Translations under genes and position numbers: made by a program | IMG/VR virus record: IMGVR_UViG_3300029057_000206 | DNA: 64,000 bases | From: a virus | Reading direction: 5' to 3' (one strand) | Notes under the pieces: generated by a model | Database searches by the model: none | What the model was told of the DNA's origin: nothing | Seen by the model: the letters and a program-made list of their open reading frames with translations, nothing else | Part shown: piece after piece, positions 9,074 to 53,773 of the stretch | How the letters are laid out: every line of letters begins with the position of its first letter | Numbering within the stretch: position 1 is the stretch's first letter

Positions 9074-9499
9074 CTATTTTGTATACTGATTCTGTATATA
9101 CTGGCGCACAGTTTCTTTGCTCATGTTCCCAACGGTACCCATGTAATAGCTGTGTGACCACAGGTGCCCTCCCCACATCTTTGCTTCTTTGATCTCCGGG
9201 TGGTTTATGAAAAAGATCTTTGCACTATGGCCCTTGAGATTTTTTACTACATCTGTTGCAGAATACTTTGGCTTAAAACTTAGCATCATATGGACATGAT
9301 CTTCCATAACTTCGATCTCTTCGATGCTGATGTCACTTTTCCCGGCGATATCCAGAAGGATGGATTTCATTTCTTCCACAAGCTGTGGAGTCATAAAAAT
9401 CTTATTCCTGTACTTCGTGACCCACACCAGACGATAGTGGAAGTTGTAAACATAATTCCGTTCATAAACGGCACCTTCAATGCGTGGTTTTCTTTTCAT
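9074..9499 (-). CDS. tnpA: IS200/IS605 TnpA (Y1 HUH transposase)
   Basis: Contains the HUH motif HVHMML and conserved residues YxxK..WGGHLWS..Y. It was trimmed to the ATG that has an RBS (the track ORF starts at 9634). Confidence 0.85.
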   Translation of the reverse strand: MKRKPRIEGAVYERNYVYNFHYRLVWVTKYRNKIFMTPQLVEEMKSILLDIAGKSDISIEEIEVMEDHVHMMLSFKPKYSATDVVKNLKGHSAKIFFINHPEIKEAKMWGGHLWSHSYYMGTVGNMSKETVRQYIQNQYTK

Positions 9500-9609
9500 A
9501 TGCATCACTCCTTTTATTTTAAAATAGCATATGTGTCTGTTGAATTCAATGTTCATATGTGCTATAATTAACCCAAACATAAGTTTGCTTTTGAAGGAGG
9601 TGAAAATCC

Positions 9610-19442: not shown

Positions 19443-19484
19443 CAACAACGAAGAAGGGCTTGCAGCGATGCATGCCTTTTTTTG

Positions 19485-19536
19485 TTTCATATTAAAGAAT
19501 GTAAACAATTTGATCATCGAAAGGAGAAAAAATACT
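19485..19536 (+). promoter_or_regulatory. leader module L
   Basis: tttcatattaaagaatgtaaac...atcgaaaggagaaaaaatactATG. Confidence 0.5.
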
Positions 19537-22275: not shown

Positions 22276-22416
22276 CAACAAATCACTTAAGGGGGAATGG
22301 GAAACCGTTCCTTCTTTTTCTGCCTGCAAGCAGACGATGTATACAGTTTATTTCAAAAATTAAAATATGAGGTTTTTCAGTATACGGTTGTAAAAATATT
22401 TTTAAAAAAACTTTCT

Positions 22417-22462
22417 AAATTCCTTTGACAATTTTCCAGATGGCGCAATATGTGTATTGTAA
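22417..22462 (+). promoter_or_regulatory. promoter element P copy 3
   Basis: ttcctttgacaattttccagatggcgcaatatgtgtattg. Confidence 0.5.
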
Positions 22463-22602
22463 AGGTCATAAACCGGGCTGCCAGGGTTACCGGCTGGCAG
22501 AAATCCTTTCGATATTTGTTTACGCTTCCGGGGAAACCCGGAAAGGAGCAGGAGGACAGCAGCACATGCTGCTTCCGGGTCCGATTCCCGGATGCTTCTT
22601 TT
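22455..22602 (+). ncRNA. promoter-P-driven structured small RNA, family A copy 1 (~150 nt)
   Basis: The 5' hairpin is gctgccag-ggttaccgg-ctggcag. The terminator is a T-arm-like hairpin ccgggtccgattcccgg followed by a U-run. Three copies have conserved stems and vary only in loops. An SD-preceded mini-ORF (MLLPGPIPGCFFYK...) lies inside. Confidence 0.45.
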
Positions 22603-25143: not shown

Positions 25144-25376
25144 GTTGCACCACGCAAGGGTGCAGGGGTGAAATATTATACTGAATCGTCGCTGCCTGCA
25201 TAGATATAGTTGCATCCCTTATGGGATGTATGGGTTGAAATTCAATAGAAACAGATGCATTCGGAGGTGTTACAAGTTGCACCCCCGCAAGGGGTGCATG
25301 GGTTGAAAATAAGAAATGGTAGGAAGGAATTCAGATATGAACATTAGTTGCATCCCGCAAGGGTGCAGGGGTGAAG
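25144..25376 (+). CRISPR. CRISPR array 1: 4 degenerate type I-C-like repeats (31-34 nt) and 3 spacers (34-37 nt)
   Basis: Repeats are gttgcaccacgcaagggtgcaggggtgaaat, gttgcatcccttatgggatgtatgggttgaaat, gttgcacccccgcaaggggtgcatgggttgaaaa and gttgcatcccgcaagggtgcaggggtgaag. They end in the I-C-like (G)GTTGAAAT. Spacer 2 is near-identical to a spacer in array 3. Confidence 0.75.
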
Positions 25377-25536
25377 TAAAAGGATGTTGCCAGATATGTC
25401 AACCAAACTCGACTATTGAATAAATAACCGAGCATGATTCCTTCGGAACTGCTGAATCATGTAGTCTGACTGGTGAAGCGATGGTATACATATTTGAACA
25501 AATTAAACAAAAATACAGAATCAGAGGGAAAATAAT

Positions 25537-26184
25537 ATGTCAAAAACAAAAGGACTATCAAAGAAGAAAAAATTACTAAAAACGCTCATACATAAATACC
25601 TTCCATTGCAGGTACTACTTACTGTCTTTTTGTATGCAGTAATTGTATTTATTAACATTCCAATTAATAAATGGCTTACTCTCAACTGTCAGAAATGGTC
25701 AAGTGGGGAATATCATTTTTATGATGCATTTTTTATTCTTCCATTTGCTGAACTGTTAATTTTTGCCATTATGTCTGCCGTTATTTGCGCTGTTTATTAT
25801 TTTGTCAGTGGAATAATCGCATATAGGAATTACTGTTACATTCCACTTACAGAAGATGAAATCAAGAAAAAAGGATTTAAAAATGCAGATGAGTATTTTG
25901 CTTATGTGTGCAACATGTGTTCTTATGGTTTTAAAAATAATAAAGACTACATTCTTGTTGGTGATGAAGACCTCCAAAAAATGTTAACTACCTGTCTGCA
26001 GGTATTTCCTGATAATGGGACAATTTTTGGAATAAACCGCCATATGGTACGAAATATCATATGGGATCCTGATTTTCTTTCCGCACTTGCACTAGCCAGT
26101 GACCAAAGGGCGGAAATCATCAATGGACGTGTTGTATTGTCTGGCACCACAAAAGATGGTGACAGAAAAGAATATAAGATATAA
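25537..26184 (+). CDS. array-adjacent membrane protein, family X (two TM helices plus a ~120-aa C-terminal domain)
   Basis: 215 aa. It is paralogous to 46747..47394 (same position relative to array 4) and to 26459..26791. Confidence 0.6.
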   Translation: MSKTKGLSKKKKLLKTLIHKYLPLQVLLTVFLYAVIVFINIPINKWLTLNCQKWSSGEYHFYDAFFILPFAELLIFAIMSAVICAVYYFVSGIIAYRNYCYIPLTEDEIKKKGFKNADEYFAYVCNMCSYGFKNNKDYILVGDEDLQKMLTTCLQVFPDNGTIFGINRHMVRNIIWDPDFLSALALASDQRAEIINGRVVLSGTTKDGDRKEYKI

Positions 26185-26458: not shown

Positions 26459-26791
26459 ATGTCAAAGAAAAAAATATCAAAAAAGAAAAATGTATTAAAG
26501 GTGTTATGGAATGAGTGTATAACATTCAAGGTGTTAATTTTTATCATAGCATATGTAGTGCTTGCGTTTATTAATATGCCATTTGAAAAATGGCTCTCAC
26601 TTTATTTCGAATGGGAAAAATTAAAGGATTATCAAGAAGTATTCATGGAGGAGATAACATTATTAGTAATTCTCCCTCTCATGGAGATAGCTGCTGTTGC
26701 ATTAATTTGTTTTATTATCTATGAGTTTTTTTGCTCTGTCAGTAAGATGATTGCATCTGATGAAGTAATTTCGATTGAAAAGGAAGAATGA
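26459..26791 (+). CDS. membrane protein, family X (short paralog, N-terminal TM part only)
   Basis: The MSKKKISKKKNVLKVLWNEC N-terminus is shared with 46747. Confidence 0.5.
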   Translation: MSKKKISKKKNVLKVLWNECITFKVLIFIIAYVVLAFINMPFEKWLSLYFEWEKLKDYQEVFMEEITLLVILPLMEIAAVALICFIIYEFFCSVSKMIASDEVISIEKEE

Positions 26792-33842: not shown

Positions 33843-33980
33843 CTTTTATGGTGAGAGTTTTATTTTTGATCATGGCGAAACGATACCAAAGAAAGTCCGG
33901 TTTGCAGTGTACGAAAAATGCAACCACCGGTGCAATTTTTACTTCGAAAAGATCGGACTGGATATGGCGTAAGTTTTCAA

Positions 33981-34028
33981 AAAATCTTTGACGATTTTTC
34001 AAAAGGCGCAATATGTATAGTGTAAAGG
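33981..34028 (+). promoter_or_regulatory. promoter element P copy 6
   Basis: aaaatctttgacgatttttcaaaaggcgcaatatgtatagtg. Confidence 0.5.
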
Positions 34029-34165
34029 TCATAAACCGAGCTGCCAGGGTTACCGGCTGGCAGAAAATCCTTTCGAAAAATGTTTACGTTCCGGGAAATC
34101 CCCGGAAAGGATAGTGGGTACGCAGCGCAAGTTATTCCGGGTTCGACTCCCGGATATCCTTTTTC
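34019..34165 (+). ncRNA. structured small RNA family A copy 2
   Basis: It has the same hairpins as copy 1. The terminator is ccgggttcgactcccgg followed by a U-run. Confidence 0.45.
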
Positions 34166-35335: not shown

Positions 35336-35387
35336 GAAAGAAGCCGGGGAATCCCGACTTTTCTGCTGCATTGTGTGTATATTTTAA

Positions 35388-35461
35388 CGCCGCCTGCGGG
35401 ATTCGAACCCGCGGATAAAGAGTTCAAAGCTCCCTGCGTTAACCTTTTCGCCAAGGCGGAG
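35388..35461 (-). tRNA. tRNA-Gln(TTG)-like, degenerate (acceptor mismatch, G-U pairs in the anticodon stem)
   Basis: T-arm gcgggTTCGAATcccgc. Anticodon loop CTTTGAA. Confidence 0.35.
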
Positions 35462-35532
35462 CACACCCGGAAGGACTCGAACCCTCGTTACCGGTTTTGG
35501 AGACCAGTTTCTGTCCATCAGACAGGTGCATA
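35462..35532 (-). tRNA. tRNA-Trp(CCA)-like with a reduced D-arm (possible pseudo-tRNA)
   Basis: Anticodon arm ctggtCTCCAAAaccgg. T-arm gagggTTCGAGTccttc. The acceptor needs two G-U pairs. Confidence 0.35.
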
Positions 35533-35533
35533 A

Positions 35534-35604
35534 CAGGCGATAATGGAATCGAACCATTGTTTTCTGAGTCAGAATCAGATGTCTTACCATTGAACGAATC
35601 GCCC
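35534..35604 (-). tRNA. tRNA-Gln(CTG)
   Basis: Anticodon arm tctgaTTCTGACtcaga. T-arm aatggTTCGATTccatt. Position 1:72 is a G-U wobble. Confidence 0.5.
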
Positions 35605-35606
35605 AG

Positions 35607-35680
35607 TATCCCCAAAGGGACTCGAACCCTTAACCGACAGATTAGAAATCTGTTGCTCTTTCCAATTGAGCTATGGGGAT
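35607..35680 (-). tRNA. tRNA-Arg(TCT)
   Basis: Full cloverleaf: acceptor ATCCCCA/TGGGGAT, D-arm GCTCaattggaaaGAGC, anticodon arm acagaTTTCTAAtctgt, T-arm aagggTTCGAGTccctt. Confidence 0.75.
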
Positions 35681-35686
35681 ATATAG

Positions 35687-35776
35687 CGCAGACACCGGGG
35701 ATCGAACCCGGACAGCGGGTGTGCCGCATGCCACATTAGCAGTGTGGAGGGGTACCATTTACCTTTATATGTCTGC
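35687..35776 (-). tRNA. tRNA-Ser(GCT), class II
   Basis: Acceptor GCAGACA/TGTCTGC. Anticodon arm ccacaCTGCTAAtgtgg. Long variable arm. T-arm ccgggTTCGATCcccgg. Confidence 0.6.
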
Positions 35777-35781
35777 ATAAG

Positions 35782-35853
35782 AGGCATCGGAGGGGATCGA
35801 ACCCTCGCCTTCCGGGTTGCAGCCGGACGCCTTCGCCGTTTGGCTACGATGCC
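35782..35853 (-). tRNA. tRNA-Cys(GCA)
   Basis: Acceptor GGCATCG/CGATGCC. Anticodon arm tccggCTGCAACccgga. T-arm gagggTTCGATCccctc. Confidence 0.75.
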
Positions 35854-35883
35854 ATATAATTCTTCCCGATAAGAGAAGATGAG

Positions 35884-35967
35884 CGCTGGGGCAGGGAGTC
35901 GAACCCTGATATCCTTTCGGAATGACGGTTTTCAGGACCGTTGCTTTACCAGTTGAGCCACCACAGC
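35884..35967 (-). tRNA. tRNA-Ser(TGA), class II, with an unusual C33
   Basis: Anticodon arm acggtCCTGAAAaccgt. Variable-arm hairpin tccGAAAgga. T-arm cagggTTCGACTccctg. Confidence 0.55.
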
Positions 35968-36005
35968 AAAAATAAAAGCATACACCTCTCAATCGAAAGA
36001 TGTAT
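35960..36005 (-). terminator. terminator inside the tRNA array (minus strand) that splits it into two transcription units
   Basis: The reverse complement reads aagcataca...tgtatgctt followed by ttatttttg. Confidence 0.45.
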
Positions 36006-36212
36006 GCTTTGCAATTCCAGGTATTTCCAATATTCTCCCGGAAATTTCCCTACAATGACCACATTTCTTTCAATTTGAGACAATATTTATTTGCACGACA
36101 ACTACGCCAGATACATGACTGCGACTGACTCATACTTGCCTGTGAATATTGTCTCATTACTGCTGTAATCATTGATTTTCCCTTCCTTTCCTTGGTTTTC
36201 TTGAATATTTAG

Positions 36213-36286
36213 TGTGTCTGGTGGGACTTGAACCCGACGACCCCACGATTAAAAGTCGCGTGCTCTGCCAACTGAGCTACAGACAC
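36213..36286 (-). tRNA. tRNA-Lys(TTT)
   Basis: Acceptor GTGTCTG/CAGACAC. D-arm GCTCagttggcaGAGC. Anticodon arm cgcgaCTTTTAAtcgtg. The T-stem is imperfect. Confidence 0.6.
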
Positions 36287-36291
36287 ATAAG

Positions 36292-36363
36292 CGGATCAGG
36301 AGGGGATCGAACCCTCATCTTCCGGTAGACAGCCGGATGTACTAGCCGCTATACTACAGATCC
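36292..36363 (-). tRNA. tRNA-Asp(GTC)
   Basis: Anticodon arm tccggCTGTCTAccgga. T-arm gagggTTCGATCccctc. Confidence 0.65.
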
Positions 36364-36367
36364 ATAA

Positions 36368-36440
36368 AGCTCCCGTCCGGCTTCGAACCGGAAACCTTCT
36401 GATTACAAGTCAGATGCACTACCAGTTGTGCTACAGGAGC
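36368..36440 (-). tRNA. tRNA-Thr(TGT)
   Basis: D-arm GCACaactggtaGTGC. Anticodon arm tctgaCTTGTAAtcaga. T-arm tccggTTCGAAGccgga. Confidence 0.7.
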
Positions 36441-36446
36441 AGGAAC

Positions 36447-36519
36447 ACTTCCGACGGGTGCTGCCCCGCTATCTCCGCCGTGACAGGGCGGTGACTCTGT
36501 TGTTTGTCCTCGGAAGTAA
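36447..36519 (-). pseudogene. tRNA-like pseudogene (7-bp acceptor cttccga/tcggaag and a GTC-anticodon-like hairpin, but no TTCGA T-loop)
   Basis: The reverse complement reads CTTCCGAgg...ccgccCTGTCACggcgg...TCGGAAG. Confidence 0.3.
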
Positions 36520-36524
36520 ATAAG

Positions 36525-36606
36525 TGCGCCGGGGAGGACTCGAACCTCCGGTGTTTCTTTGTGGCTGATTTACAGTCAGCTGCTGTCGCCTCTGAGCCAC
36601 CGACGC
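36525..36606 (-). tRNA. tRNA-Tyr(GTA), class II length, with an unstructured variable region
   Basis: Acceptor GCGTCGG/CCGGCGC. Anticodon arm gctgaCTGTAAAtcagc. T-arm ggaggTTCGAGTcctcc. Confidence 0.55.
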
Positions 36607-36611
36607 ATAAG

Positions 36612-36683
36612 CTGGTCCGGAGGGTCTCGAACCCTCAACGCCCCGGTTAACAGCCGGGTGCTCTACCATTGAGCTACGGATCA
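36612..36683 (-). tRNA. tRNA-Asn(GTT)
   Basis: Starts with U1-A72. D-arm GCTCaatggtaGAGC. Anticodon arm cccggCTGTTAAccggg. T-arm gagggTTCGAGAccctc. Confidence 0.7.
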
Positions 36684-36684
36684 G

Positions 36685-36756
36685 AGCATGTGACGGGTCT
36701 CGAACCCGCCCGTCCTGCTTGGAAGGCAGGTGTGCCGCCAACAACACTTCACATGC
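36685..36756 (-). tRNA. tRNA-Gly(TCC)
   Basis: Acceptor GCATGTG/CACATGC. Anticodon arm cctgcCTTCCAAgcagg. T-arm gcgggTTCGAGAcccgt. Confidence 0.7.
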
Positions 36757-37261
36757 ATGCGGATAAAAGAAGTGCCTGTTTTCTCTTATCCATTCAGTTT
36801 TTTTACCGCATCGCTGCGGAGTGGACAGGAGTGGTAACGATCCACCCTGTAAGGATTTTCAGTCCTTCGCTAATCCATCTCAGCTACCTGTCCATGGCTT
36901 TTTCTGCAATAAAAAAGCCGCATCAAGAAATTTCCTCTTCTCTCTGCGGTCATCTGCGTTTTGCAATATTTCGGTTTTAAGTGCCTGGTTTAAAATCGAA
37001 ATCGACCGCGGGAAGGTGTATCATAATAGTTCTGTCCCCATGTTTTCCCGGATTTTGAGCATGAGAAACTAAACATATTGCTGAAATCGCCGTATGTTCT
37101 ACAATCATTATTAAAATTTTTACTACTCATCATCTTTAACATGGTTTTCTTTTCCTTTCATTTTAATTAATGCTGGATAAACAAAAAGCCCGTCACTTAA
37201 CTCAAAGCTACACATCCAAATAGCTCTGAGTTAAAAGACAGGCACTTCTTTTATCTCATGC
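36755..37261. repeat. ~500-bp segment bounded by ~24-bp inverted repeats (gcatgcggataaaagaagtgcctgt / acaggcacttcttttatctcatgc) that abuts the 5' end of tRNA-Gly
   Basis: The IRs can be read directly, with one indel. The interior has no convincing ORF. Confidence 0.45.
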
Positions 37262-38168: not shown

Positions 38169-38501
38169 TTGAAATGTTTGACATGCAAGAAACACTGGTC
38201 GCAGGGAGGCCGCTGTTCAGAGAACGTGAGAAACTGCCTGCATTATGAGGAAGAACCAAGAGGAAAAATGGTCCGCACAGAACTGTCTTTTCGTATGGAT
38301 GCAGAGGCGGAAACTCCGGTGGTCAGATTTGGAGAGAAAATACTGGTTTCCGATGGTTCAAAAGCGGTCGAGATGACTGTGGTCAAGATCAACTGGGTTA
38401 ATCTTCGGGATATGCTCTGCAATGTATCCGCGGATTATCATGAGAATGAGATGCCGCGATTTGAGAAAGAAAAGAAGTTCAAAGCATTACATGGAAAATA
38501 G
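38169..38501 (+). CDS. hypothetical protein (TTG start with a strong RBS aaaggaggagg)
   Basis: 110-aa ORF. Confidence 0.4.
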   Translation: MKCLTCKKHWSQGGRCSENVRNCLHYEEEPRGKMVRTELSFRMDAEAETPVVRFGEKILVSDGSKAVEMTVVKINWVNLRDMLCNVSADYHENEMPRFEKEKKFKALHGK

Positions 38502-38608
38502 TTGCATTCCAGTGGAATGCATGGGGTGAAAGAAATAGGCAAATCGCATGACAATTTCTGAAATTAAATTGTTGCGCTCCCGTGGAGGGGGGCGTATGGA
38601 TTGAAATG
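38501..38608 (+). CRISPR. mini-array: 2 degenerate I-C-like repeats and 1 spacer (36 nt)
   Basis: Repeats gttgcattccagtggaatgcatggggtgaaag and gttgcgctcccgtggaggggggcgtatggattgaaat. Spacer aaataggcaaatcgcatgacaatttctgaaattaaatt. Confidence 0.6.
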
Positions 38609-38936: not shown

Positions 38937-38990
38937 GTTTTGCTCCTTTCAAAATACTTTCGTTTACACTTTCAATATGAAATGAAAATA
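38937..38990 (-). promoter_or_regulatory. leader module L (minus strand)
   Basis: The reverse complement reads tttcatattgaaagtgtaaacgaaagtattttgaaaggagcaaaacATG. Confidence 0.5.
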
Positions 38991-39005
38991 TTTCAAAACA
39001 TTTCC

Positions 39006-39052
39006 AAAAACTTTTGACGATTTTTTAAATGGCGCAATATGTATCATGTAAA
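39006..39052 (+). promoter_or_regulatory. promoter element P copy 8
   Basis: aaacttttgacgattttttaaatggcgcaatatgtatcatg. It contains a 14/15 match to spacer S1 of array 4. Confidence 0.5.
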
Positions 39053-39190
39053 GGTCATAAACCGAGCTGCCAGGGTTATCGGCTGGCAGAAATCTTTTCG
39101 ATATTTGTTTACACTCCGGGGAAACCCGGAAGGGGTAGTGAGGACGCAGCGTGTGCTGTTTCCGGGTTCGATTCCCGGGTATCCCTTTTG
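39045..39190 (+). ncRNA. structured small RNA family A copy 3
   Basis: gctgccagggttatcggctggcag...ccgggttcgattcccgg followed by a U-run. A second similar terminator hairpin lies at 39402-39435. Confidence 0.45.
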
Positions 39191-39464
39191 ACTGCCACAT
39201 ACGGTCTTCTCAAAATTCAGCCGTCTGCGGCCTGTGGAACTTTCCACTGGACCAAAATAACGATAACCGCCAGAATAACAGCAGCGTGCGTTGGCGTGAG
39301 AACTATCGGCGCACAGGGATTACTCCTTTCATATTTATCTATCAAACCTTTCCGTACATCGTATGGAAAGGTTATGGGACAGCAGGTGCATAGACATGAA
39401 CTATTCCGGGATCGTTTCCCGGATGTTCCATTTTTAAAACATTAAAACAAATCATAGGAGGGAA

Positions 39465-40193
39465 TTGATGATGGAGAAAGAAGTAGTATATGTTGCAGAA
39501 CTGGATTCCGATGTTGATGATGTCGTTGCGGCACATTACTTATTTAACGAGGGTGTGTTAAAGTGTGTAGTATGCGATCCATATCCAAGAACACCGGAGG
39601 GGTTGGCACGAAAGGGAAAGCTGGAAGCGCTTGGCATCGATGTGGTTAAGAAAATGCCACCGGTTGCAAAATATGTGTTTGTTGGCGGCGCTCTTACGGC
39701 TGTTGCTGGCTATATCCGGATGCACCATGTCGACTGGCTGGTAATGAACGGAGGCTTTGTTGGAGCAAATATTGCGACCTTTGAACTGGATAAGTTCAAG
39801 GGGAAGAACACTGTCCGTACCTTCAATTTCAACTGCGATGTTGTGGCTGCAGATACGGTTTTGAAAACTGATGAGAAGCATATTTCTCATATTGTTCTTG
39901 TCGGAAAAAACGTCTGCCATGACGTCCGAAATACGAAAAATGGTCTCTGGAGTGGCGAGAAATACAAGAAATTGTTCGATGAGTACCGGGTTAAGGATGA
40001 GAAGCGTCAACACGACTTGCTTGCCTGCCATGAGGGGCTTGCATTTCTGCGGGGAACCAATGCGATCTGTGAGTATGAGATGGTAAGACCATACAACACA
40101 GGCTTGAATGGCAAGCTGACGCAGTGGGGTAGCACAAAAACCATGGAAACACCATATCGCGAAGTGCTTGCTGCTGTTGGCTACCAGAATTAA
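39465..40193 (+). CDS. hypothetical protein
   Basis: 242 aa. RBS aggaggg. Confidence 0.5.
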   Translation: MMMEKEVVYVAELDSDVDDVVAAHYLFNEGVLKCVVCDPYPRTPEGLARKGKLEALGIDVVKKMPPVAKYVFVGGALTAVAGYIRMHHVDWLVMNGGFVGANIATFELDKFKGKNTVRTFNFNCDVVAADTVLKTDEKHISHIVLVGKNVCHDVRNTKNGLWSGEKYKKLFDEYRVKDEKRQHDLLACHEGLAFLRGTNAICEYEMVRPYNTGLNGKLTQWGSTKTMETPYREVLAAVGYQN

Positions 40194-40195
40194 AA

Positions 40196-40300
40196 GCTGC
40201 ATCATGTGCGGGGGTGTATGGATTGAAATGTCGGAGTATGGTGTAAGAATCATATATATTCCTACGTTGTGCTCCTCCCGGTTGGTGCACGGGTTGAAAT
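40196..40300 (+). CRISPR. mini-array: 2 degenerate repeats and 1 spacer (36 nt), abutting the stop codon of the previous gene
   Basis: Repeats gctgcatcatgtgcgggggtgtatggattgaaat and gttgtgctcctcccggttggtgcacgggttgaaat. Confidence 0.55.
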
Positions 40301-41891: not shown

Positions 41892-42110
41892 GTTGCGCCC
41901 CATTGGGTGCATGGGTTGAAATCTTTATGACCTTCTGAAAAGTGAGGGCATCTTAGTTGCACCCCCGCAAGGGATGTATGGGTTGAAATTCAATAGAAAC
42001 AGATGCATTCGAAGGCGTTACAAGTTGCACCCCGCGAGGGGTGTATGGGTTGAAATTGCAGAAAGCTCAGGATTGGAAGGTTGCATCCTATGGGATGCAT
42101 GGATTGAAAC
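41892..42110 (+). CRISPR. CRISPR array 3: 4 degenerate repeats and 3 spacers (34, 34, 23 nt)
   Basis: Repeats gttgcgccccattgggtgcatgggttgaaat, gttgcacccccgcaagggatgtatgggttgaaat, gttgcaccccgcgaggggtgtatgggttgaaat and gttgcatcctatgggatgcatggattgaaac. Confidence 0.75.
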
Positions 42111-42205
42111 GAACATATTTGTTATTATTTATTATTGAGATCAGAAAGGTCTGCAGTCAGTTAATCTGGCTGCAGATTTTTTTTGCAATTTTTTAAAAAT
42201 TTTCC

Positions 42206-42252
42206 AAAATCTTTTGACGATTTTTTAAAAGGCGCAATATACATATTGAAGG
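42206..42252 (+). promoter_or_regulatory. promoter element P copy 9. It contains an exact 15-nt match (42204-42218) to spacer S1 of array 4, overlapping the -35-like TTGACG
   Basis: ttccaaaatcttttgacgattttttaaaaggcgcaatatacatattg. Confidence 0.55.
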
Positions 42253-42445
42253 GATAAACAGGGGCTTACCGTTTGTTTCTTCAATAAGAGTTTTTCTCTT
42301 ATATGCCTCCTTAAGTTTCCTGCGCTGCATTTACAGCATTTTGGCAGCGCAGGGGGAATCCACAGGACTGCATTTGACGTTGTGTGGCGGCCTGCTCATC
42401 CGGTTCAACCCCGGAGGATTCCCTTACCGCTTATTTTTGCGGAGA
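42250..42445 (+). ncRNA. promoter-P-driven structured RNA, family B copy 2
   Basis: Hairpin cctgcgctgc/gcagcgcagg. Its 3' end catccggttcaaccccggaggattccc is homologous to 11790-11830. A T-run terminator follows. Confidence 0.35.
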
Positions 42446-42467: not shown

Positions 42468-42514
42468 AAAATTCTTTGACGATTTTTTAAAAGGCGCAAT
42501 ATGTGTATTGAAGG
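42468..42514 (+). promoter_or_regulatory. promoter element P copy 10 (proximal promoter of the cas operon)
   Basis: aaattctttgacgattttttaaaaggcgcaatatgtgtattg. Confidence 0.55.
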
Positions 42515-42547: not shown

Positions 42548-42578
42548 AGTTAAAAGTTGTGCCCCTATGGGGTGCATG
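42548..42578 (+). repeat. solitary degenerate CRISPR repeat (gttgtgcccctatggggtgcatgggtaataag) between promoter P10 and the cas5c RBS
   Basis: Matches the local repeat consensus at ~24/31 positions. There is no adjacent spacer or second repeat. Confidence 0.45.
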
Positions 42579-42595
42579 GGTAATAAGAGAAAGGA

Positions 42596-43270
42596 ATGGA
42601 AAAAGAAAAAATGGGAGTGAAACTAAAAGTCTGGGGAGATTACGCATTGTTCACCAGACCAGAACTGAAAACTGAACGGTATACATACGATGTGATGACA
42701 CCGTCGGCGGCTAGAGGAATTCTGGAATCTATCTACTGGCATCCGGGACTTCGGTGGTATGTAGACAAGATTCATGTATTAAATCCGATTGCCACTACGA
42801 GCGTGAGAAGAAATGAACTTCTCAGTAAGATACCAAAGTCAAATATGCTGCAGGCATACAACGGCGGGGATGTGAAACTGTATAACTCGTCAAGAGACGA
42901 TATTATCCAGAGGGCATCTGTTATTCTCCGGGATGTCTGCTATGTGATTGAGGCGCATTTTGAAATGACAGGGAAAGCGAGCCCAACAGACAGCCCGGCA
43001 AAGTTTATAAGTATCTTTAACAACAGGGCAAGAAAAGGGGCATGTTATTCGATGCCGTATTTTGGTGTAAGGGAATTCCCGGCACACTTTGAACTCTGCG
43101 AAGGAGATGAAAAGATCCCATCCTACTATGAAGGACTTCCGGACAAAGATCTCGGGCTGATGCTTTATGATCTGGATTACTCCTGCGGTAGAGATATCCA
43201 GCCAATGTATTATCATGCGATTATGAAAAACGGCGTTATTGACGTTGGGAACAGTGAGGTGCTTCGATGA
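42596..43270 (+). CDS. cas5c: Cas5c (Cas5d), the type I-C pre-crRNA-processing Cascade subunit
   Basis: The N-terminus has the hallmark VKLKVWGDYALFTRPE. 224 aa. Confidence 0.85.
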   Translation: MEKEKMGVKLKVWGDYALFTRPELKTERYTYDVMTPSAARGILESIYWHPGLRWYVDKIHVLNPIATTSVRRNELLSKIPKSNMLQAYNGGDVKLYNSSRDDIIQRASVILRDVCYVIEAHFEMTGKASPTDSPAKFISIFNNRARKGACYSMPYFGVREFPAHFELCEGDEKIPSYYEGLPDKDLGLMLYDLDYSCGRDIQPMYYHAIMKNGVIDVGNSEVLR

Positions 43271-45006
43271 TCCTTCAGTCACTTGTGAAATTATATGAAA
43301 CACTTGCGGATCAGGGAAAAGTGTCCCGTCCTGGCTGGTGTAATGCAAAGGTATCCTATGCGGTGGTTTTAAACCATGATGGGACGATTAAAGATATTGT
43401 TTCCGTGAAACAGAAAGTGAAGAGAGGAAAGAAGACTGTTGAAATTCCAATAATTATGCAGGTTCCAGAGATGGTCACCCGCGCTAACAACATTGCCTCC
43501 AGCTTTCTCTGCGAAAATGCAAAGTATCTCTTTGGGATTGACGAAAAGATGAGTTTGCGTACACTGGAATGTTTTAAGGCGGCAAAGAAAAAACATCTTG
43601 ATATTCTTGATGTTGTGGATTCACCTGTAGCACAGACGGTATGTAACTTTTTCCGTTCATGGGATCCGGAACAGGCGTTGGATCAACCGGCTGTTGCAAA
43701 ACTTGCAGAAGAGTTTTATAAAGGCGGAAACCTCGTTTTTGAAGTAGATGGGGAATATGTGCATGATAATGAAGAAGTCCGCAGGGCATGGATGGATTAC
43801 AGCAGTGTACCATATGAAATGGTAACTGGAAGATGCCTTATTACTGGAGAGGAAGCGGAGATTGCCCGCACGCACGGGAAAATCAAAGGAGTTCCGGGAG
43901 CACAGTCATCTGGCGCGTCGCTTGTATCATTTAACGGAGCATCCCTTGAGTCTTATGAAAAAACACAGAGCTACAACGCGCCGATTAGCACCTATGCGGC
44001 GTATGCATATGTGACCGCGCTGAATTACTTGCTTTCTACGGACGGGTATCACAGCAAGGTAGGAGATTCCATGGTGGTTTTCTGGACAGATTCCGGGGAT
44101 GTGGATGATGTGAGCAGACTGCGGAAGATGATGGGAAGCATCAATGAAAAGGATCACACCCCTACAGATACGGATGAAAAACTGTACGTCCTCTGCCTTG
44201 CACCAAATGCCGGGCGAATTGCAGTCCGGTTCTTCTATGAGGATGCGATCGGGGTAATCTGGGAAAACCTGTCCGAACATGCCAGTCGGATGAAGATTGT
44301 AAAACCAGTATTTGAGGATCAAGAATTTATCAATATCTGGCAGATGCTCATGGAGACAGTCAACCAGAATCTTACAGATAAAACACCTGTCCCGCATATG
44401 TCAGCAATGACGTTACAGTCAGTCATTTCGGATACACCGTATCCGCAGAGTCTGTATGCAGGTGTGTTATCTCGTATCCGCGCGGAGCACAAAGGTGTTA
44501 CTTACAGAAAAGCATCGATTATTAAAGCTTTTTTAATAAAGAACTACAAATGGGAGGAAGGAAAAAATATGGAAGCATTAAATGAAGGCTGTAAGGATCG
44601 GGCATATATCCTTGGAAGACTGTTTGCGGTTATGGAAAAGGCACAGAAAGAAGCAGTTGGCAATATCAACCAGACAATTTGTGATAAGTTTTACAATTCC
44701 GCGTGCACAACACCAAGATCGATCTTTCCAGTACTGATCAGGCTATCTAACAGTCATTTAAGTAAGTTGAAACGGACAAAACCGGGGAGAGGATATTATT
44801 TTACAGCTAAAATGCAGGATTTAATGGATAAAATTCCGGTAACAGATGATGATCCGGGATTCCCGCGGCGTTTCTCATATGAGGATCAGGGTAAGTTTGC
44901 ACTTGGTTATTATCATCAGATGCGGGCGGAATATACAAGCAGTAAGTTAAAAGATAATGATTCAGAAGGTGATCAGACAAATGCAGAGAATATGGAGGAA
45001 AACTAA
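43267..45006 (+). CDS. cas8c: Cas8c (Csd1), the type I-C large subunit
   Basis: The N-terminus MILQSLVKLYETL is typical of Csd1. 579 aa. Its start overlaps the cas5c stop. Confidence 0.85.
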   Translation: MILQSLVKLYETLADQGKVSRPGWCNAKVSYAVVLNHDGTIKDIVSVKQKVKRGKKTVEIPIIMQVPEMVTRANNIASSFLCENAKYLFGIDEKMSLRTLECFKAAKKKHLDILDVVDSPVAQTVCNFFRSWDPEQALDQPAVAKLAEEFYKGGNLVFEVDGEYVHDNEEVRRAWMDYSSVPYEMVTGRCLITGEEAEIARTHGKIKGVPGAQSSGASLVSFNGASLESYEKTQSYNAPISTYAAYAYVTALNYLLSTDGYHSKVGDSMVVFWTDSGDVDDVSRLRKMMGSINEKDHTPTDTDEKLYVLCLAPNAGRIAVRFFYEDAIGVIWENLSEHASRMKIVKPVFEDQEFINIWQMLMETVNQNLTDKTPVPHMSAMTLQSVISDTPYPQSLYAGVLSRIRAEHKGVTYRKASIIKAFLIKNYKWEEGKNMEALNEGCKDRAYILGRLFAVMEKAQKEAVGNINQTICDKFYNSACTTPRSIFPVLIRLSNSHLSKLKRTKPGRGYYFTAKMQDLMDKIPVTDDDPGFPRRFSYEDQGKFALGYYHQMRAEYTSSKLKDNDSEGDQTNAENMEEN

Positions 45007-45007
45007 G

Positions 45008-45919
45008 ATGAGCACACCAATTAAGAACAGATATGATTTCGTAGTATTATTCGACGTAGAGAATGGAAATCCGAACGGTGATCCGGATGCCGGAAATATG
45101 CCGAGAGTTGATCCAGAGACTGGCATCGGGCTTGTGACAGATGCCTGCATAAAGCGCAAGATCCGTAATTATGTGGAAACTGTAAAAGAAGATGCAGCCG
45201 GGTTCAAGATCTATATTAAAGAGGGGGTCCCGCTGAACCGGAGTGACCTTAAGGCAGTCGAAAGTCTTGGTATTGACGTCGGTGACGACAAAAATGCACT
45301 TGAAGATGTAAAGAAGCTGAAAAAGACAGATGAAGATGTGGATCTTAAGCTCCGTGACTATATGTGTAGTAATTTCTATGATATCCGTACATTTGGTGCT
45401 GTCTTGACTACCTTTACAAAGGCGGCATTAAACTGTGGACAGGTACGTGGCCCGGTACAGATTGGTTTTGCAAAAAGTATTGATCCTGTTTTCAGCCAGG
45501 ATATTACTGTAACCAGAGTTGCAATCACAACGGAAAAGGATGCGGAAAAGAAAAATACAGAAATGGGAAGAAAGAGTATTATTCCTTATGGACTTTACCG
45601 TGTGGAGGGATATATTTCTGCTAATCTTGCCCGTAAGACCACCGGCTTTTCTGAAGACGATCTGGAACTGCTTTGGGAAGCAATCATTAACATGTTTGAG
45701 AATGACCATTCCGCAGCACGCGGGAAGATGGCAGTGCGTGAGCTCATCGTATTCAAGCATAACAGCGAGCTTGGCAATTGTCCATCGTACAAACTGTTTG
45801 AAACTGTTGATGTTAAGAAGAATGATGGTGTTGAGTTTCCTCGTAAATATTCCGATTATGCAGTGACTATTCATGAGGATGCGATTCCGGATGGCGTGAC
45901 AATGACTCGCAAAATCTAA
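45008..45919 (+). CDS. cas7c: Cas7c (Csd2), the type I-C backbone subunit
   Basis: Contains the hallmark NPNGDPDAGNMPR. RBS ggagga, then ATG 45008 (the track ORF start 44957 overlaps cas8c). Confidence 0.85.
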   Translation: MSTPIKNRYDFVVLFDVENGNPNGDPDAGNMPRVDPETGIGLVTDACIKRKIRNYVETVKEDAAGFKIYIKEGVPLNRSDLKAVESLGIDVGDDKNALEDVKKLKKTDEDVDLKLRDYMCSNFYDIRTFGAVLTTFTKAALNCGQVRGPVQIGFAKSIDPVFSQDITVTRVAITTEKDAEKKNTEMGRKSIIPYGLYRVEGYISANLARKTTGFSEDDLELLWEAIINMFENDHSAARGKMAVRELIVFKHNSELGNCPSYKLFETVDVKKNDGVEFPRKYSDYAVTIHEDAIPDGVTMTRKI

Positions 45920-46168
45920 AAAGATTTCCAGAGATTACAAGGCAACCCGCGTTTTGCGGGCTGCATCTGCTTGGGTTATGCCGAAATGTAGAATTCCGGT
46001 GCGAACTGAAAGCTTACATAGCTTCTCTGGGAGACTCGCACCGGAAATGGAGGTATTAGTGTACAAAAAGAACACAAAACCCAACTGTATAAGGCCGTTT
46101 GAGAACAATTAATTAGAGGAATTGTTTATATTTTGGCGATCGGGAGAGTTGTTTCTGTTCACTTTTAC

Positions 46169-46724
46169 AGCTACGCCCCATGGAGGGGCGTATGGATTGA
46201 AATACCAAAATCTTTTGACATTCTTATAAATGGTAACAGCTACGTCTTATGGGGTACGTATGGATTGAAATCATAATAATTGTAGAGATCTCAATACAAA
46301 ATAAAGCTGCGTCTCATGGAATACGTATGGATTGAAATGAAAAGGCGAGTTTGCGAAAGCAGATATTGGAATGTTGCGTCTCGTGGAGTACGTATGGATT
46401 GAAATTCCAACTTTAACTACATAACTATCCTGATAAACTTGCTGCACCCCATGGAGAGTGTATGGATTGAAATTTAAAAAATCATGGATAACATCTGCGA
46501 TAAGACGTTGCACCTCGCTAGGGGTGTATGGGTTGAAATTTCCATAATCGGTAGCCAATTATTATCATTAGGTGTTGCACCCCATAGAGGGTGTATGGAT
46601 TGAAATTATATAAAAATGATGAATATGTAAAAAAAATAAAAGAGTTACGCTCCATGGAGTGCGTATGGCTTGAAACCTCTTATTTTTTTAAAGATATCAC
46701 AATTACGCCCAAAGTGGGCTTACG
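46169..46724 (+). CRISPR. CRISPR array 4: 8 mutually divergent repeats plus a truncated ninth, and 8 spacers (26-38 nt)
   Basis: For example agctacgccccatggaggggcgtatggattgaaat, gttgcgtctcgtggagtacgtatggattgaaat, gttgcacctcgctaggggtgtatgggttgaaat and ttacgctccatggagtgcgtatggcttgaaac. The stem halves change in a compensatory way. The last partial repeat ends 22 nt before the ATG of the family-X membrane gene. Confidence 0.75.
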
Positions 46725-46746: not shown

Positions 46747-47394
46747 ATGTCAAAAACAAAAGGAATATCAAAAAAGAAAGATATATTAAAGGTATTTTGG
46801 AATGAGTGTGCAGTATTTAAGGTAGTTGTTTGTATTCTTGCGTATGTGATACTCGGCTTTATCAATATACCAATTAACAGGTGGCTTACATTTCATGTAC
46901 CTAAATGGTCAGATGGGAAACTACATGATATAACAGGATCATTTTTTGTTCTTCCTATCCTTGAAGTATTAGCGGTCACTTTAATTTATCTTATCGCTAA
47001 TGGATGCTTTTATTTCATCAGCAAGATGATCGCGTACAGGAATTACTGTTACATTCCGCTTACGGAAGATGAAATTAAAGGAAAGAAATTTAAGAATGCA
47101 AATGAGTATTTTTCCTATGTCCTCAATGTCCTTTCCTATGGTTTTAAGAATGAAAAAGAAAATCTCCAGGTTAGTGATGATGATCTTCGAGAAATGCTTA
47201 TAACTTGTCTGATTGTATTCCCTGATAATGGGACAATATTTCAGATAAAACCAGAAACTGCGTGGAATGTTTCAGACGACATCCTTTTCTCCGAAGCCGT
47301 TGAATTGAATTGCGGAAAAGCAGAAATAATTGATAAGCATGTTGTATTGTCTGGTGATAATAGAAACGGCAAAAGAGAAGAATATACAGTGTGA
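46747..47394 (+). CDS. array-adjacent membrane protein, family X (paralog of 25537..26184)
   Basis: Begins MSKTKGISKKKDILKVFWNEC, has two TM helices, and a conserved C-terminal YRNYCYIPLTEDEIK...VVLSG domain. The start was moved to the RBS-backed ATG. Confidence 0.6.
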   Translation: MSKTKGISKKKDILKVFWNECAVFKVVVCILAYVILGFINIPINRWLTFHVPKWSDGKLHDITGSFFVLPILEVLAVTLIYLIANGCFYFISKMIAYRNYCYIPLTEDEIKGKKFKNANEYFSYVLNVLSYGFKNEKENLQVSDDDLREMLITCLIVFPDNGTIFQIKPETAWNVSDDILFSEAVELNCGKAEIIDKHVVLSGDNRNGKREEYTV

Positions 47395-49663: not shown

Positions 49664-50152
49664 ATGAATACGTTGGAAAATTTAGAAATGGTATTGTTTG
49701 ACTTTGATGATACGCTGTGTATACATAGTCATCGCTCAGATTCTTATGAGGAACTGATGGAATATTTGTCATATATTCATTCAGGTGAAACATTTCCAAA
49801 ATCATGGAATAAATCAAAACCGAATTTGCAGTTAAAGAAATTCATGGATTATCTTGCTTATAAGAATATCCCTATGGGTTTAATTAGCGGAGTGCGTGAT
49901 TGTAAGACTGCGGAAAGAAAGATCAAATGGGTTAAAGAAAATTACGGTTACTTACTGGAAAATTACTGTGTATCCAGTCAGGAACAGAAGATTATTGAAC
50001 TTAAGGTCCTTGCAAAGGTTAACAGGCTTCATGAAAACCAGATTGCTATTATCGACGATTTATATCCCAATCTTGAAAAAGCAGAAAGTGAAGGTTTCGT
50101 TGCTCTTTCCCCAATGCAGGTTGTCAATTTATTTAATGAAATATCTAAATAG
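49664..50152 (+). CDS. HAD-superfamily hydrolase (5'-nucleotidase-like)
   Basis: Motif I FDFDDTL. ~60% identical to the N-terminal half of the next gene. Confidence 0.65.
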   Translation: MNTLENLEMVLFDFDDTLCIHSHRSDSYEELMEYLSYIHSGETFPKSWNKSKPNLQLKKFMDYLAYKNIPMGLISGVRDCKTAERKIKWVKENYGYLLENYCVSSQEQKIIELKVLAKVNRLHENQIAIIDDLYPNLEKAESEGFVALSPMQVVNLFNEISK

Positions 50153-50341
50153 AGACCTACTGATACTGCCGAGATTGCACAAGATTACGATTTTCCATTG
50201 CAGGATATGTGAGAGATAATTTGTTGAATTAGAGGTGATTATATTGGATTTATTTGGAAGAGATTTATGGACCCAAGCAGATGAAGATTTTTTAGGTAGA
50301 AAGTGTTATTTGTTGCAAAGTACGGTTGGAAGGGGATTTTA

Positions 50342-51337
50342 ATGAATAAGTTGGAAAATTTAAAAATGGTGCTGTTTGACTTTGATGATACATTGGCTGT
50401 GCATAGTCAAGGACATCGCATAAGCGATCATCTGATGAAATATATGATAAACGTGCATTCTGGAAGTAAAGAATTATGGAATACCTCGAAACCGAATTTA
50501 CAATTAAAGAAATTCATGGATTATCTCGCCTGTAAGAACATTTCTATGGGATTGATTAGTGGAGTACATGATTGTAAAGCCGCGGAAAGAAAAATCGAAT
50601 GGGTCAAAGAAAACTATGGGTATTCATTAGAGAATTATTGTGTATCCAGTCAAGAACAGAAGATGATTGAATTATCAACCATTGCAGAGGTTAATGGATT
50701 TCATGAAAGCCAGATTGCTCTTGTTGATGACTACTATGAAAATCTCGGAAATGCTGAAAAAATGGGATTTACAACATTTTCTCCTATGGAAATTGTTAAT
50801 TTGGTTAATTGCTTTCAAAATACAGATTTGGAAAAAATGTTGATCAGCCCTGATCCTGGGTGGGGGATAAATTTACGAAATAAATACATATTCTGGGATA
50901 TAGACGGCACTTTAGCGGAATACCGGTTTAACGGGCATGTTTCAGATCCGGAAGGTACTGATAACGGTATGAGTTTAAAAGAAATTGAGGATGGGGTTTT
51001 TCTCAAGAGAAAACCATCTTATCATATGCAGATGGTATTGTCTACATGTGGCGCGAAGCAGAACATTGTAATGGGGCACTGCCAGGTACAGAAAGAAATG
51101 GATGATAAACAGCTCTGGCTGGACAAGTATTATCCAAGTATCACAGAACGTTTACTTGTGTCGGAAGATAAATCGAAAGCAGATACCATTTTGCAATACT
51201 GTAAGGATCATGATATTAGCTTGCAAGATGTGGTATTTGTTGATGACACGATTCCATTTCTCCGCGAAGCAGAGCGAAAAGGGATTAAATCATTTCATAT
51301 CAGCAGTTTTTTGGATTGGGATTTCGAAAGGAGGTAA
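50342..51337 (+). CDS. tandem double-HAD hydrolase (two DxDxT domains)
   Basis: FDFDDTL and WDIDGTL motif I sequences, plus VFVDDT. Confidence 0.65.
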   Translation: MNKLENLKMVLFDFDDTLAVHSQGHRISDHLMKYMINVHSGSKELWNTSKPNLQLKKFMDYLACKNISMGLISGVHDCKAAERKIEWVKENYGYSLENYCVSSQEQKMIELSTIAEVNGFHESQIALVDDYYENLGNAEKMGFTTFSPMEIVNLVNCFQNTDLEKMLISPDPGWGINLRNKYIFWDIDGTLAEYRFNGHVSDPEGTDNGMSLKEIEDGVFLKRKPSYHMQMVLSTCGAKQNIVMGHCQVQKEMDDKQLWLDKYYPSITERLLVSEDKSKADTILQYCKDHDISLQDVVFVDDTIPFLREAERKGIKSFHISSFLDWDFERR

Positions 51338-53581: not shown

Positions 53582-53773
53582 TTTCTTGCGGAGCAGAGCA
53601 GAGGAAGGCTCACCGGGCTCATGACCTGGGTGTCGGATGTTCGATTCCTTTCTCCGCAATTAATTTTAAAAAAGGGAGGTTATAACATGTTCTAACTGAT
53701 TAAAAAACATAAACAAGCATTCGTTCAAAAGAAAGATTCGTATGTGAAAAAAGGATGGGAGGAAAAGAAAATC

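Follow-up and report, generated by a model that had tools for sequence, protein, structure and literature searches.

Analysis of a 64,000-nucleotide stretch of viral DNA (IMG/VR record IMGVR_UViG_3300029057_000206; hereafter the window) reveals a type I-C CRISPR locus reduced to cas5c, cas8c and cas7c. On balance, these genes are best explained as a functional Cascade-only surveillance module that possesses its own CRISPR arrays and represents lineage-specific cargo of a prevalent Roseburia faecis element. The main array still gains spacers in the absence of local enzymes, and therefore the cutting and spacer-capturing enzymes appear to come from elsewhere. Turnover at the leader end of this array, together with a TTC-flanked target matched at 34 of 34 positions, thus points to working surveillance against mobile genetic elements, with adaptation in trans. 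The features of the locus are listed in Table 1.

Table 1. Coordinates of the type I-C module and associated features in the window.
Feature	Position	Strand	Description
Mini-array I	25144..25377	+	4 repeats, 3 spacers; P motif upstream at 25034
Mini-array II	38501..38607	+	2 repeats, 1 spacer; begins at the stop codon of gene 38169-38501
Mini-array III	40196..40300	+	2 repeats, 1 spacer; 3 nt past the stop codon of gene 39465-40193
Mini-array IV	41892..42110	+	4 repeats, 3 spacers; a terminator-like hairpin follows at 42143-42183
Two tandem P-type promoter-like motifs	42209-42245, 42471-42507	+	upstream of cas5c
Degenerate solitary repeat	42556..42587	+	in the cas5c 5' UTR, ends ~8 nt before the start codon
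cas5c	42596..43270	+	pre-crRNA endonuclease subunit
cas8c/csd1	43267..45006	+	large subunit
Putative cas11c	44569..45006	+	145 aa, predicted internal translation within cas8c
cas7c/csd2	45008..45919 (alternative start 44957)	+	backbone subunit
Leader	45920..46169	+	251 nt, between cas7c and the main array
Main CRISPR array	46170..46676	+	8 repeats, 7 spacers
Small membrane-protein gene	46747..47394	+	directly 3' of the main array; membership in the system uncertain

The cas genes are three intact open reading frames on the plus strand that overlap or abut each other. Profile scores far above the respective cut-offs bear out the preliminary description, in which the three genes had been reported as intact, in this position and order, and neither Pfam nor tblastn searches identify anything else cas-like attached to them. 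Cas5c (for which most gene callers prefer the start at 42611, yielding a protein of 219 aa) matches the profile TIGR01876 with 176 bits (cut-off 85), shows 62% identity to the Roseburia chromosomal Cas5c and aligns over its full length with the Cas5c of D. vulgaris, “pre-crRNA processing endonuclease” (PDB 7KHA/8DEX), with an E value of 1e-65; the crRNA processing attributed to it in the preliminary description is plausible. Cas8c scores 400 bits against TIGR01863, Cas8c/Csd1 (cut-off 219), and 551 bits against PF09709; it shares only 50% identity with the Roseburia Cas8c, and the identical protein is present on 889 contigs. An in-frame ATG within cas8c, with GGGAGGAAGGA, a strong ribosome-binding site, 7 nt ahead, is the predicted start of Cas11c; type I-C Cas11 arises by internal translation in cas8c, as reportedly described by McBride and colleagues in 2020. 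Cas7c matches TIGR02589, Cas7/Csd2, with 342 bits (cut-off 182) and is 78% identical to the Roseburia Cas7c.

Full-length cas5c, cas8c and cas7c are found on hundreds of contigs, and no copy contains a stop codon in a cas gene. Among independent copies, cas5c and cas7c show few differences, all of them synonymous except in copy L017, which has one non-synonymous change in cas5c and non-synonymous changes in 5 of the 8 altered codons of cas8c. Cas8c forms one tight cluster, and its next relatives show about 50% identity; both of those inspected belong to canonical chromosomal I-C loci with cas3, cas4, cas1 and cas2, and the Cas3-less Cas8c subclade that had been envisaged did not appear. A search for Cas8c relatives in the GTDB species genomes and IMG/VR found none, and the element is not represented in IMG/VR as searched.

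A Pfam scan of the 73 retained window ORFs of at least 60 aa detects no Cas3 HD, Cas3 C-terminal, Cas1, Cas2, Cas4 or Cas6 domain. The best hit of a tblastn search with the Roseburia Cas3, Cas4, Cas1 and Cas2 against the window and its flanks, taken from other loci (~7.7 kb upstream and ~9.2 kb downstream), has an E value of 0.8, and the same method reveals no pseudogene traces of these genes. This absence covers ~81 kb of an element of 285-375 kb. The lack of cas3, cas4, cas1 and cas2, originally reported for the vicinity of the operon, thus extends to the whole window and ~17 kb beyond, and a cas3-cas4-cas1-cas2 block just outside the window is not found in the ~8-9 kb read on each side. The Cas3-less layout is identical in every copy seen. 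The nearby helicase (22666-24969) is indeed not Cas3: it is a RadD/EcoAI-R-like SF2 helicase of the phage family phrog_16. A small HD protein (60596-61306), absent from the preliminary description, is YhaM/HDIG-like and scores 18.9 bits against the cas3_HD profile (cut-off 43.45). A split Cas3 composed of these two proteins was considered and rejected because both fall below the Cas3 cut-offs.

The window contains 21 repeat units, all on the plus strand; the main array and the four mini-arrays to which most of them belong had gone unmentioned in the preliminary description. The repeats are ~32 nt long, include a hairpin and terminate in a 3' ATTGAAA(C/T) end that gives an 11-nt handle, the same as that of the canonical Roseburia I-C repeat, which is also detected by the same covariance model. 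The hairpins covary (93% paired cells; 13 double-sided compensatory changes) at a level that none of 500 shuffles reaches. All eight repeats of the main array differ from each other, and several repeats are degenerate; the solitary repeat retains the hairpin and matches the covariance model with 29 bits, its handle having decayed. Spacer 2 of mini-array I is nearly the same as spacer 2 of mini-array IV (32 of 34 positions). A metagenome scan with the exact leader-proximal repeat finds it only within the element's own arrays. The leader is identical in the three copies L001, L002 and L010 and shows no significant similarity to the leader of one Roseburia I-C locus (not from R. faecis); an Rfam search with the repeats and leader RNAs yields no family match. 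The membrane-protein gene next to the main array has a paralog at 25537-26184, 3' of mini-array I.

Across 17 further copies of the element, two of them truncated, the seven distal spacers are unchanged, except for one point difference in copy L023, and the leader-proximal end carries 10 distinct sample-specific spacers, each bordered on both sides by the first repeat in identical form. Each new repeat duplicates exactly the 34 nt that are specific to the element. These leader-end differences between samples follow the pattern of Cas1-Cas2 integration. The assertion that adaptation is impossible accordingly stands for the genes of the window and fails for the system as a whole, given the leader-end differences and the TTC PAM. 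The spacer GTAAGG...TTTT matches the integrative element IMGVR_UViG_3300011989_000479 at 34 of 34 positions, and this protospacer, the single one on which the TTC PAM rests, directly follows TTC. It adjoins a rolling-circle rep gene, just upstream, and the crRNA pairs with the coding strand.

This is the only spacer with an identified target among the 14 that could be searched for perfect matches in IMG/VR or two GenBank-derived collections; there are 26 distinct spacers overall, and the others were searched in fewer collections. Concatenated spacers compared with GenBank phages and plasmids give chance matches or none, 6 of 7 exact IMG/VR spacer scans are empty, and so is an exact GTDB scan with the duplicated mini-array spacer. 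Conversely, two arrays of a Roseburia sp. other than R. faecis supply 80 spacers, none of which has a real match in the element. For the fixed spacers, 4 seed-plus-PAM matches are observed in the window, compared with 4.2 in shuffles, and none of these is flanked by TTC; self-regulation by the fixed spacers was rejected given that the matches do not exceed chance. Spacer VI_1 alone resembles the element's own promoters, with a partial match to a promoter upstream of the cas genes.

The element is represented on hundreds of human-gut metagenome contigs, is nearly clonal and, with contigs of 200-375 kb, has a size of at least 285-375 kb; the large contigs include GCA_046997445.1 JBKXGI010000011.1 (285 kb), ERZ28615835 scaffold_12 (312 kb) and one of 375,736 bp. 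Roseburia faecis is the most likely host: the MAG labels of the element contigs name this species, and an IS in the window recurs with 100% identity in R. faecis chromosomes; searches with the IS transposases lead only to host chromosomes or to the same site of the element. Transposases in the window are limited to an IS DDE enzyme and a TnpA/TnpB pair of the IS200/605 type, more than 30 kb from the Cascade genes. A phage nature is supported indirectly by 14 tRNAs, by genes for a CCA-adding enzyme and a ligase and by several PHROG families, and no virion structural or packaging genes are present in the part read; this extrachromosomal element is probably a jumbo phage or phage-like. Three related element lineages retain the downstream genes and carry other modules in place of the Cascade. 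The loci read from these lineages and from L051, a fourth and more distant relative, show no I-C repeats. Megablast of the element against GenBank phages and PLSDB plasmids gives no match, and literature searches found no description of it.

Under the Cascade-only surveillance hypothesis, the P-type promoters would drive cas5c-cas8c(+cas11c)-cas7c, the arrays would be transcribed, and Cas5c would cut at the 3' foot of the hairpin in each repeat to leave the 11-nt handle UGGAUUGAAAU, a step suggested by what is known of the family and by the conservation pattern. Cascade would then find protospacers of 33-35 nt with 5'-TTC in rival mobile elements, as shown for one target, and new spacers enter at the leader-proximal repeat, as the population comparison shows. 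The inserting Cas1-Cas2(-Cas4) would be encoded outside the ~81 kb examined, which contain no donor of Cas1, Cas2, Cas4 or Cas3. Counting against this hypothesis are the restriction of the exact leader-proximal repeat to the element's own arrays, the lack of significant similarity between its leader and that of the inspected Roseburia locus, and the single identified target. The exact element-specific length of the duplicated repeats argues for a cognate integrase, which may be encoded in the ~200 kb of the element outside the reading. A Cas3 of the same external origin, encoded by the host chromosome or far away on the element itself, would most likely destroy the targets. The mini-arrays and the seven old spacers would constitute a hard-wired guide set, retained over a period sufficient for its repeats to drift, with compensating changes that preserve the hairpin.

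A possible, if less probable, alternative is that the module is a nuclease-free silencer, similar to type IV-A or CRISPRi, whose binding to TTC-flanked targets would halt the transcription or replication of rival elements, so that only adaptation is borrowed in trans; in a variant of this scheme, the mini-arrays might also be aimed at host genes or the element's own genes. The lack of Cas3 or any remnant of it in the ~81 kb and the constancy of this layout among the copies are compatible with such a function, and so is the location of the one known protospacer relative to the rep gene, although this positional argument comes from a single target. In type I CRISPRi, crRNA pairing to the coding strand represses the gene. 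The long-invariant guides would suit a regulatory or silencing role; however, the matches of the fixed spacers in the window are at the chance level. The plasmid-borne type IV-A3 systems, with neither adaptation genes nor a nuclease, combine acquisition in trans with silencing (10.1101/2023.06.23.546257; PMC11519345), but no dedicated helicase partner, such as DinG, is encoded next to the I-C module, and binding alone would be a weaker defense than degradation against a replicating rival. More tentatively, a Cascade-only system might be built into the element's own gene-expression program: cuts by Cas5c would both mature the guides and set the 5' ends of downstream mRNAs, including that of cas5c itself, Cascade would silence without Cas3 rival elements, host genes and perhaps the element's own P promoters, and the guides would be obtained via a borrowed host integrase.

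It is unlikely that the main role of the locus lies at the RNA level, with Cas5c and the hairpins processing polycistronic transcripts of the element and thereby defining mRNA 5' ends, or with the mini-arrays acting as decoys (Racr or crlRNA-like) that sequester or redirect host type I-C proteins. The mini-arrays do begin at or within ~20 nt of stop codons inside runs of same-strand genes, degenerate terminal repeats abut the ribosome-binding sites of cas5c and of one gene beyond the window, the 11-nt handle equals the Roseburia I-C crRNA handle, and such roles have been described for solitary repeats and mini-arrays of phages (PMC10651486; 10.1101/2024.10.29.618823). Yet, these roles require neither cas7c nor cas8c, both of which are intact and conserved, and leave the ongoing gain of PAM-flanked spacers unexplained, so that they could represent an added function instead of the main one. 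It is very improbable that the locus is a functionless leftover in decay, derived from a complete I-C system through loss of cas3 and the adaptation genes: 4 of the 7 canonical genes are missing at the locus and several repeats are degenerate, but the three remaining genes keep their full length across hundreds of contigs, the differences between copies are almost all synonymous, the hairpins covary, no pseudogene traces of the missing genes are detected, and decay is contradicted by the array polymorphism, that is, by the addition of new spacers.

Incomplete CRISPR systems on mobile elements are known, but their function and the source of the missing parts are seldom clear. The element described here provides a natural data set, being nearly clonal with a main array that varies between samples at the leader end. 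This makes testable the identity of the integrase supplier in trans-adaptation, the choice between host Cas3 and binding alone in trans-interference, and mobile-element conflict within R. faecis, a major butyrate producer. The dispersed arrays with different, covarying repeats suggest how guide sets could be stabilized once a locus has no adaptation genes of its own, and a compact three-gene Cascade working without its own Cas3, if confirmed, would be an interesting programmable binder.

The locus shares with canonical chromosomal type I-C systems (the D. vulgaris type and the Roseburia loci L024 and L036) the Cas5c, Cas8c and Cas7c families, the lack of Cas6, the internal cas11c start (predicted here), the hairpin followed by the ...TGGATTGAAAT handle, the TTC PAM and the ~34 nt spacers. 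In contrast to the canonical loci, it lacks cas3 upstream and cas4-cas1-cas2 downstream, its repeats vary within the array, at least six arrays are dispersed, and the carrier is a giant mobile element. CASTs (Tn7-like) similarly combine a Cascade without Cas3 with a mobile element, but the Tn7-associated likeness drawn in the preliminary description finds no support: TnsA, TnsB, TnsC and TniQ are not detected by Pfam in the window, the arrays are being updated, and related element lineages bear unrelated cargo at the same spot. The likeness to CreTA-protected modules drawn there finds no support either: no toxin/CreA pair was noted. The window does have the degenerate repeat in the cas5c 5' UTR and one promoter-like spacer. 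Plasmid type IV-A3 systems are also borne by mobile elements, have no adaptation module of their own, update their arrays and engage in inter-element conflict (10.1101/2023.06.23.546257), but they employ Csf proteins plus DinG, whereas the element employs a I-C Cascade. Virus-borne mini-arrays, solitary repeat units (Racr) and crRNA-like regulators are known (PMC11656645, PMC10651486, 10.1101/2024.10.29.618823, 10.1101/2023.03.03.530964) and resemble the mini-arrays of one to three spacers and the solitary degenerate repeat of the element, one spacer of which partly matches a promoter upstream of the cas genes; however, those units use host Cas proteins, whereas the element brings its own Cascade.

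Huge phages carry CRISPR systems that lack adaptation genes, interference genes or both, among them a type I-C variant in which a helicase replaces Cas3 (Al-Shayeb et al. 2020, PMC7162821; PMC11656645). The element resembles these systems in its size of more than 200 kb with a tRNA array, the Cas5d-type processing, the compact arrays, the absence of Cas1, Cas2 and Cas3 at the locus and spacers against other mobile elements. It differs in that the cas operon includes no helicase, the only SF2 helicase being located 18 kb away, in the many mini-arrays between genes, and in the direct population evidence of continuing acquisition; the part read lacks structural genes, so that its phage status is only probable. 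Taken together, these comparisons show that the locus is of a known kind, namely, the CRISPR systems of mobile genetic elements or huge phages that lack Cas3 and adaptation genes.

The three ORFs that the preliminary description took for a minimal Cascade are clear type I-C effector genes at the positions it gave (see the table). Cas5c scores 176 bits on TIGR01876 (cut-off 85), Cas8c/Csd1 400 bits (cut-off 219) and Cas7/Csd2 342 bits (cut-off 182), with Pfam and PADLOC in agreement. The "pre-crRNA processing endonuclease" of D. vulgaris (PDB 7KHA/8DEX, E ~1e-65) gives a full-length alignment with the element Cas5c, and a six-frame search identifies Cas5c, Cas8c and Cas7c as 62%, 50% and 78% identical, respectively, to the proteins of a Roseburia I-C locus. 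The small subunit of type I-C systems is made by an internal start inside cas8c; in this case, GGGAGGAAGGA is located 7 nt upstream of an in-frame ATG at 44569, with a 145-aa Cas11c as the predicted product. Between copies of the element from separate studies, the cas genes differ by few bases, nearly all of them synonymous. We infer that Cas5c processing and Cascade assembly take place.

The preliminary description made no mention of CRISPR arrays, but these genes are in fact surrounded by a main array and several mini-arrays.

Cascade genes and CRISPR repeats of the element (window coordinates, except for the last row)
Feature	Coordinates	Strand	Remarks
cas5c	42596-43270	+	
cas8c	43267-45006	+	
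cas7c	45008-45919	+	
Main array	46170-46676	+	8 repeats, 7 spacers; begins 251 nt past cas7c
Mini-array	25144-25377	+	
Mini-array	38501-38607	+	
Mini-array	40196-40300	+	
Mini-array	41892-42110	+	
Solitary repeat	42556-42587	+	Degenerate; within the cas5c 5' UTR
Further mini-array	9780-9881 (or 9780-9904) of L012, a locus extending past the window end		~5 kb past the window end

A covariance model built from the repeat units finds exactly 21 of them in the window, every one on the + strand; the best match after these scores 15 bits. In their 3' part the repeats have ...TGG(A/G)TTGAAAT in common, and their hairpins differ yet compensate, with 93% of the cells paired and 13 double-sided changes in three of the seven pairs, values reached by none of 500 shuffles. 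Type I-C Cas5c cuts at the 3' foot of the repeat hairpin, leaving an 11-nt handle; this handle is the conserved part of the element repeats and is identical to that of the canonical Roseburia I-C repeat, which the covariance model also detects. One mini-array spacer is present twice, at 25242-25275 and 41990-42023 (17 kb apart, 32/34 identical). In the mini-array past the window end, the degenerate second repeat leads directly into the following gene's RBS and start codon, as before cas5c, and such degenerate last repeats before cas5c and another gene suggest that Cas5c might also trim mRNA 5' ends.

The reported absence of cas3, cas4, cas1 and cas2 extends, by Pfam and six-frame searches, across ~81 kb, made up of the window plus ~7.7 kb of upstream and ~9.2 kb of downstream loci. 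A Pfam scan of the 73 retained window ORFs of at least 60 aa detects no Cas3, Cas1, Cas2, Cas4 or Cas6 family, and the Cas3, Cas4, Cas1 and Cas2 queries of the Roseburia I-C locus give a best E value of 0.8 in the window and flanking loci, in the same six-frame search that recovered Cas5c, Cas8c and Cas7c. Two Cas3 candidates were rejected: the helicase at 22666-24969 is RadD/EcoAI-R-like, a member of a common phage helicase family, and the HD protein at 60596-61306, considered as Cas3'', is YhaM/HDIG-like and scores far under the Cas3'' cut-off.

The preliminary description had considered adaptation impossible from genes in the window; no adaptation genes were indeed found there, but leader-end acquisition is ongoing in the main array. 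When 17 further copies of the element (loci L001-L010 and L017-L023, two of them on truncated contigs) are set against the window, the 7 distal spacers and the mutually different repeats are invariant, save for single-base differences in 2-3 copies. At the end next to the leader, each copy has between 0 and 5 extra spacers (10 distinct overall, some in one sample only, and none in the window's own main array), and the first repeat, GCTACGCCCCATGGAGGGGCGTATGGATTGAAAA, stands in identical form on both sides of every one. Such a pattern is what polarised Cas1-Cas2 integration, with its duplication of the repeat, classically leaves behind, and spacer turnover in the element outpaces point mutation. 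One extra spacer matches another mobile element, a 37-kb IMG/VR contig with two integrases, at 34/34 positions immediately 3' of TTC, the type I-C PAM. A rolling-circle replication gene begins a short way downstream of the protospacer, and the Rep family of this contig includes named members from Anaerocolumna, a Lachnospiraceae genus.

As for the fixed guides, the 7 old spacers and the mini-array spacers have no match in GenBank phages or plasmids, the duplicated mini-array spacer has no exact match in IMG/VR or GTDB, and seed-plus-PAM matches of fixed spacers within the window are not above chance. Spacer VI_1, the first of the main array (46204-46237), resembles the element's own P-type promoters (42203-42236 and 39003-39036), the best match being the promoter ~390 nt upstream of cas5c (15/16 PAM-proximal bases, 24/34 overall, with a TTT rather than TTC flank); this likeness could reflect autoregulation or a spacer captured from a sibling element. 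The proposed source of Cas1-Cas2-Cas4, and probably also of Cas3, is the host or the ~200 kb of the element outside the ~81 kb examined. The main rival reading is silencing without a nuclease, as in type IV-A3 (10.1101/2023.06.23.546257). Two points count against simple host supply: in a metagenome scan the element-specific repeat was found only in the element's own arrays, and the leader does not resemble the one inspected from a Roseburia locus.

Cas8c forms one tight cluster with next relatives ~50% identical, and the proposed Cas3-less Cas8c subclade is absent from the data; unlike the present module, the two relatives inspected are canonical chromosomal loci (cas3-...-cas5-cas8-cas7-cas4-cas1-cas2-array). 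Small membrane-protein paralogues (25537-26184, 26459-26791 and 46747-47394) come after arrays. The family of the small post-array gene comprises no more than 91 clusters out of 5.8 billion proteins and serves as a marker of related giant elements, one of them a 604-kb contig. The genes downstream of this small gene are kept in three related lineages (L047, L049 and L053), where RuvB/RecG/UvrD helicases or an E1-E2-JAB (ubiquitin-like) module occupy the upstream slot in place of Cascade and array; no I-C repeats were found in the loci read from these lineages or from a more distant fourth relative (L051). Given this replacement by other genes, the module is cargo specific to its lineage, at a hotspot whose content varies.

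Records of the exact Cas8c protein come from 889 contigs, the longest of 375,736 bp; ten inspected contigs (200-332 kb, human-gut metagenomes) have the same gene order, and the MAGs that contain the element are listed at NCBI as Roseburia faecis or Lachnospiraceae bacterium. Two IS insertions, 3839-5251 (-) and 9074-10872, lack counterparts in other element copies. The DDE-transposase IS has copies of 100% identity on megabase-size chromosomes with marker proteins named R. faecis or, in one case, Agathobacter rectalis; the IS200/605 tnpA-tnpB pair seems to interrupt a gene for a C5 DNA methylase. The window encodes 14 tRNAs (13 in one minus-strand cluster, 35387-36893, and tRNA-Met at 53586-53660), a CCA-adding enzyme (2323-3705), an NAD-dependent DNA ligase (C-terminal part only, 44-772), methylases and several PHROG-family proteins. 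The element is likely a jumbo phage or phage-like element, although no structural genes were seen in the part read and it was not found in IMG/VR. A BspA-type leucine-rich-repeat gene on the opposite strand, 14769-17405 (-), is present in some copies and missing from others. DUF6273-like and HAD-like paralogues form tandem or dispersed sets (19468-20421 and 61343-63785; 49664-50152 and 50303-51337), and the DUF6273 cluster lies close to breaks in several assemblies.

The conserved promoter-like P motif, TTGACG-N17-GGCGCAATAT, occurs at 11 sites (11592-59058, e.g., 22420, 25034, 38109, 39009, 42209 and 42471), always on the + strand upstream of gene blocks and mini-arrays, and is missed by a generic sigma-70 scan. 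Some P motifs are followed by ~150-nt "leader" repeats (22389-22602, 33952-34164, 38978-39189, 39404-39433 and ~42380-42420) terminating in the tRNA T-arm-like TTCCGGGTTCGAyTCCCGG; these yield no ARAGORN call or Rfam family match and may be tRNA-like small RNAs. A second intergenic family, ...TTTTTTTTGTTTCATATT....GTGTAAAC, with 9 sites (1424-21751) only in the first 22 kb, may represent promoters or terminators of another class, and would then point to a temporal gene module.

CRISPR systems without adaptation and/or interference genes are frequent on huge phages and plasmids (PMC7162821, PMC11656645). This kind of system is already known, and the interest of the present one lies in how prevalent it is, in the dispersed, hard-wired arrays and in direct evidence that adaptation occurs in trans.
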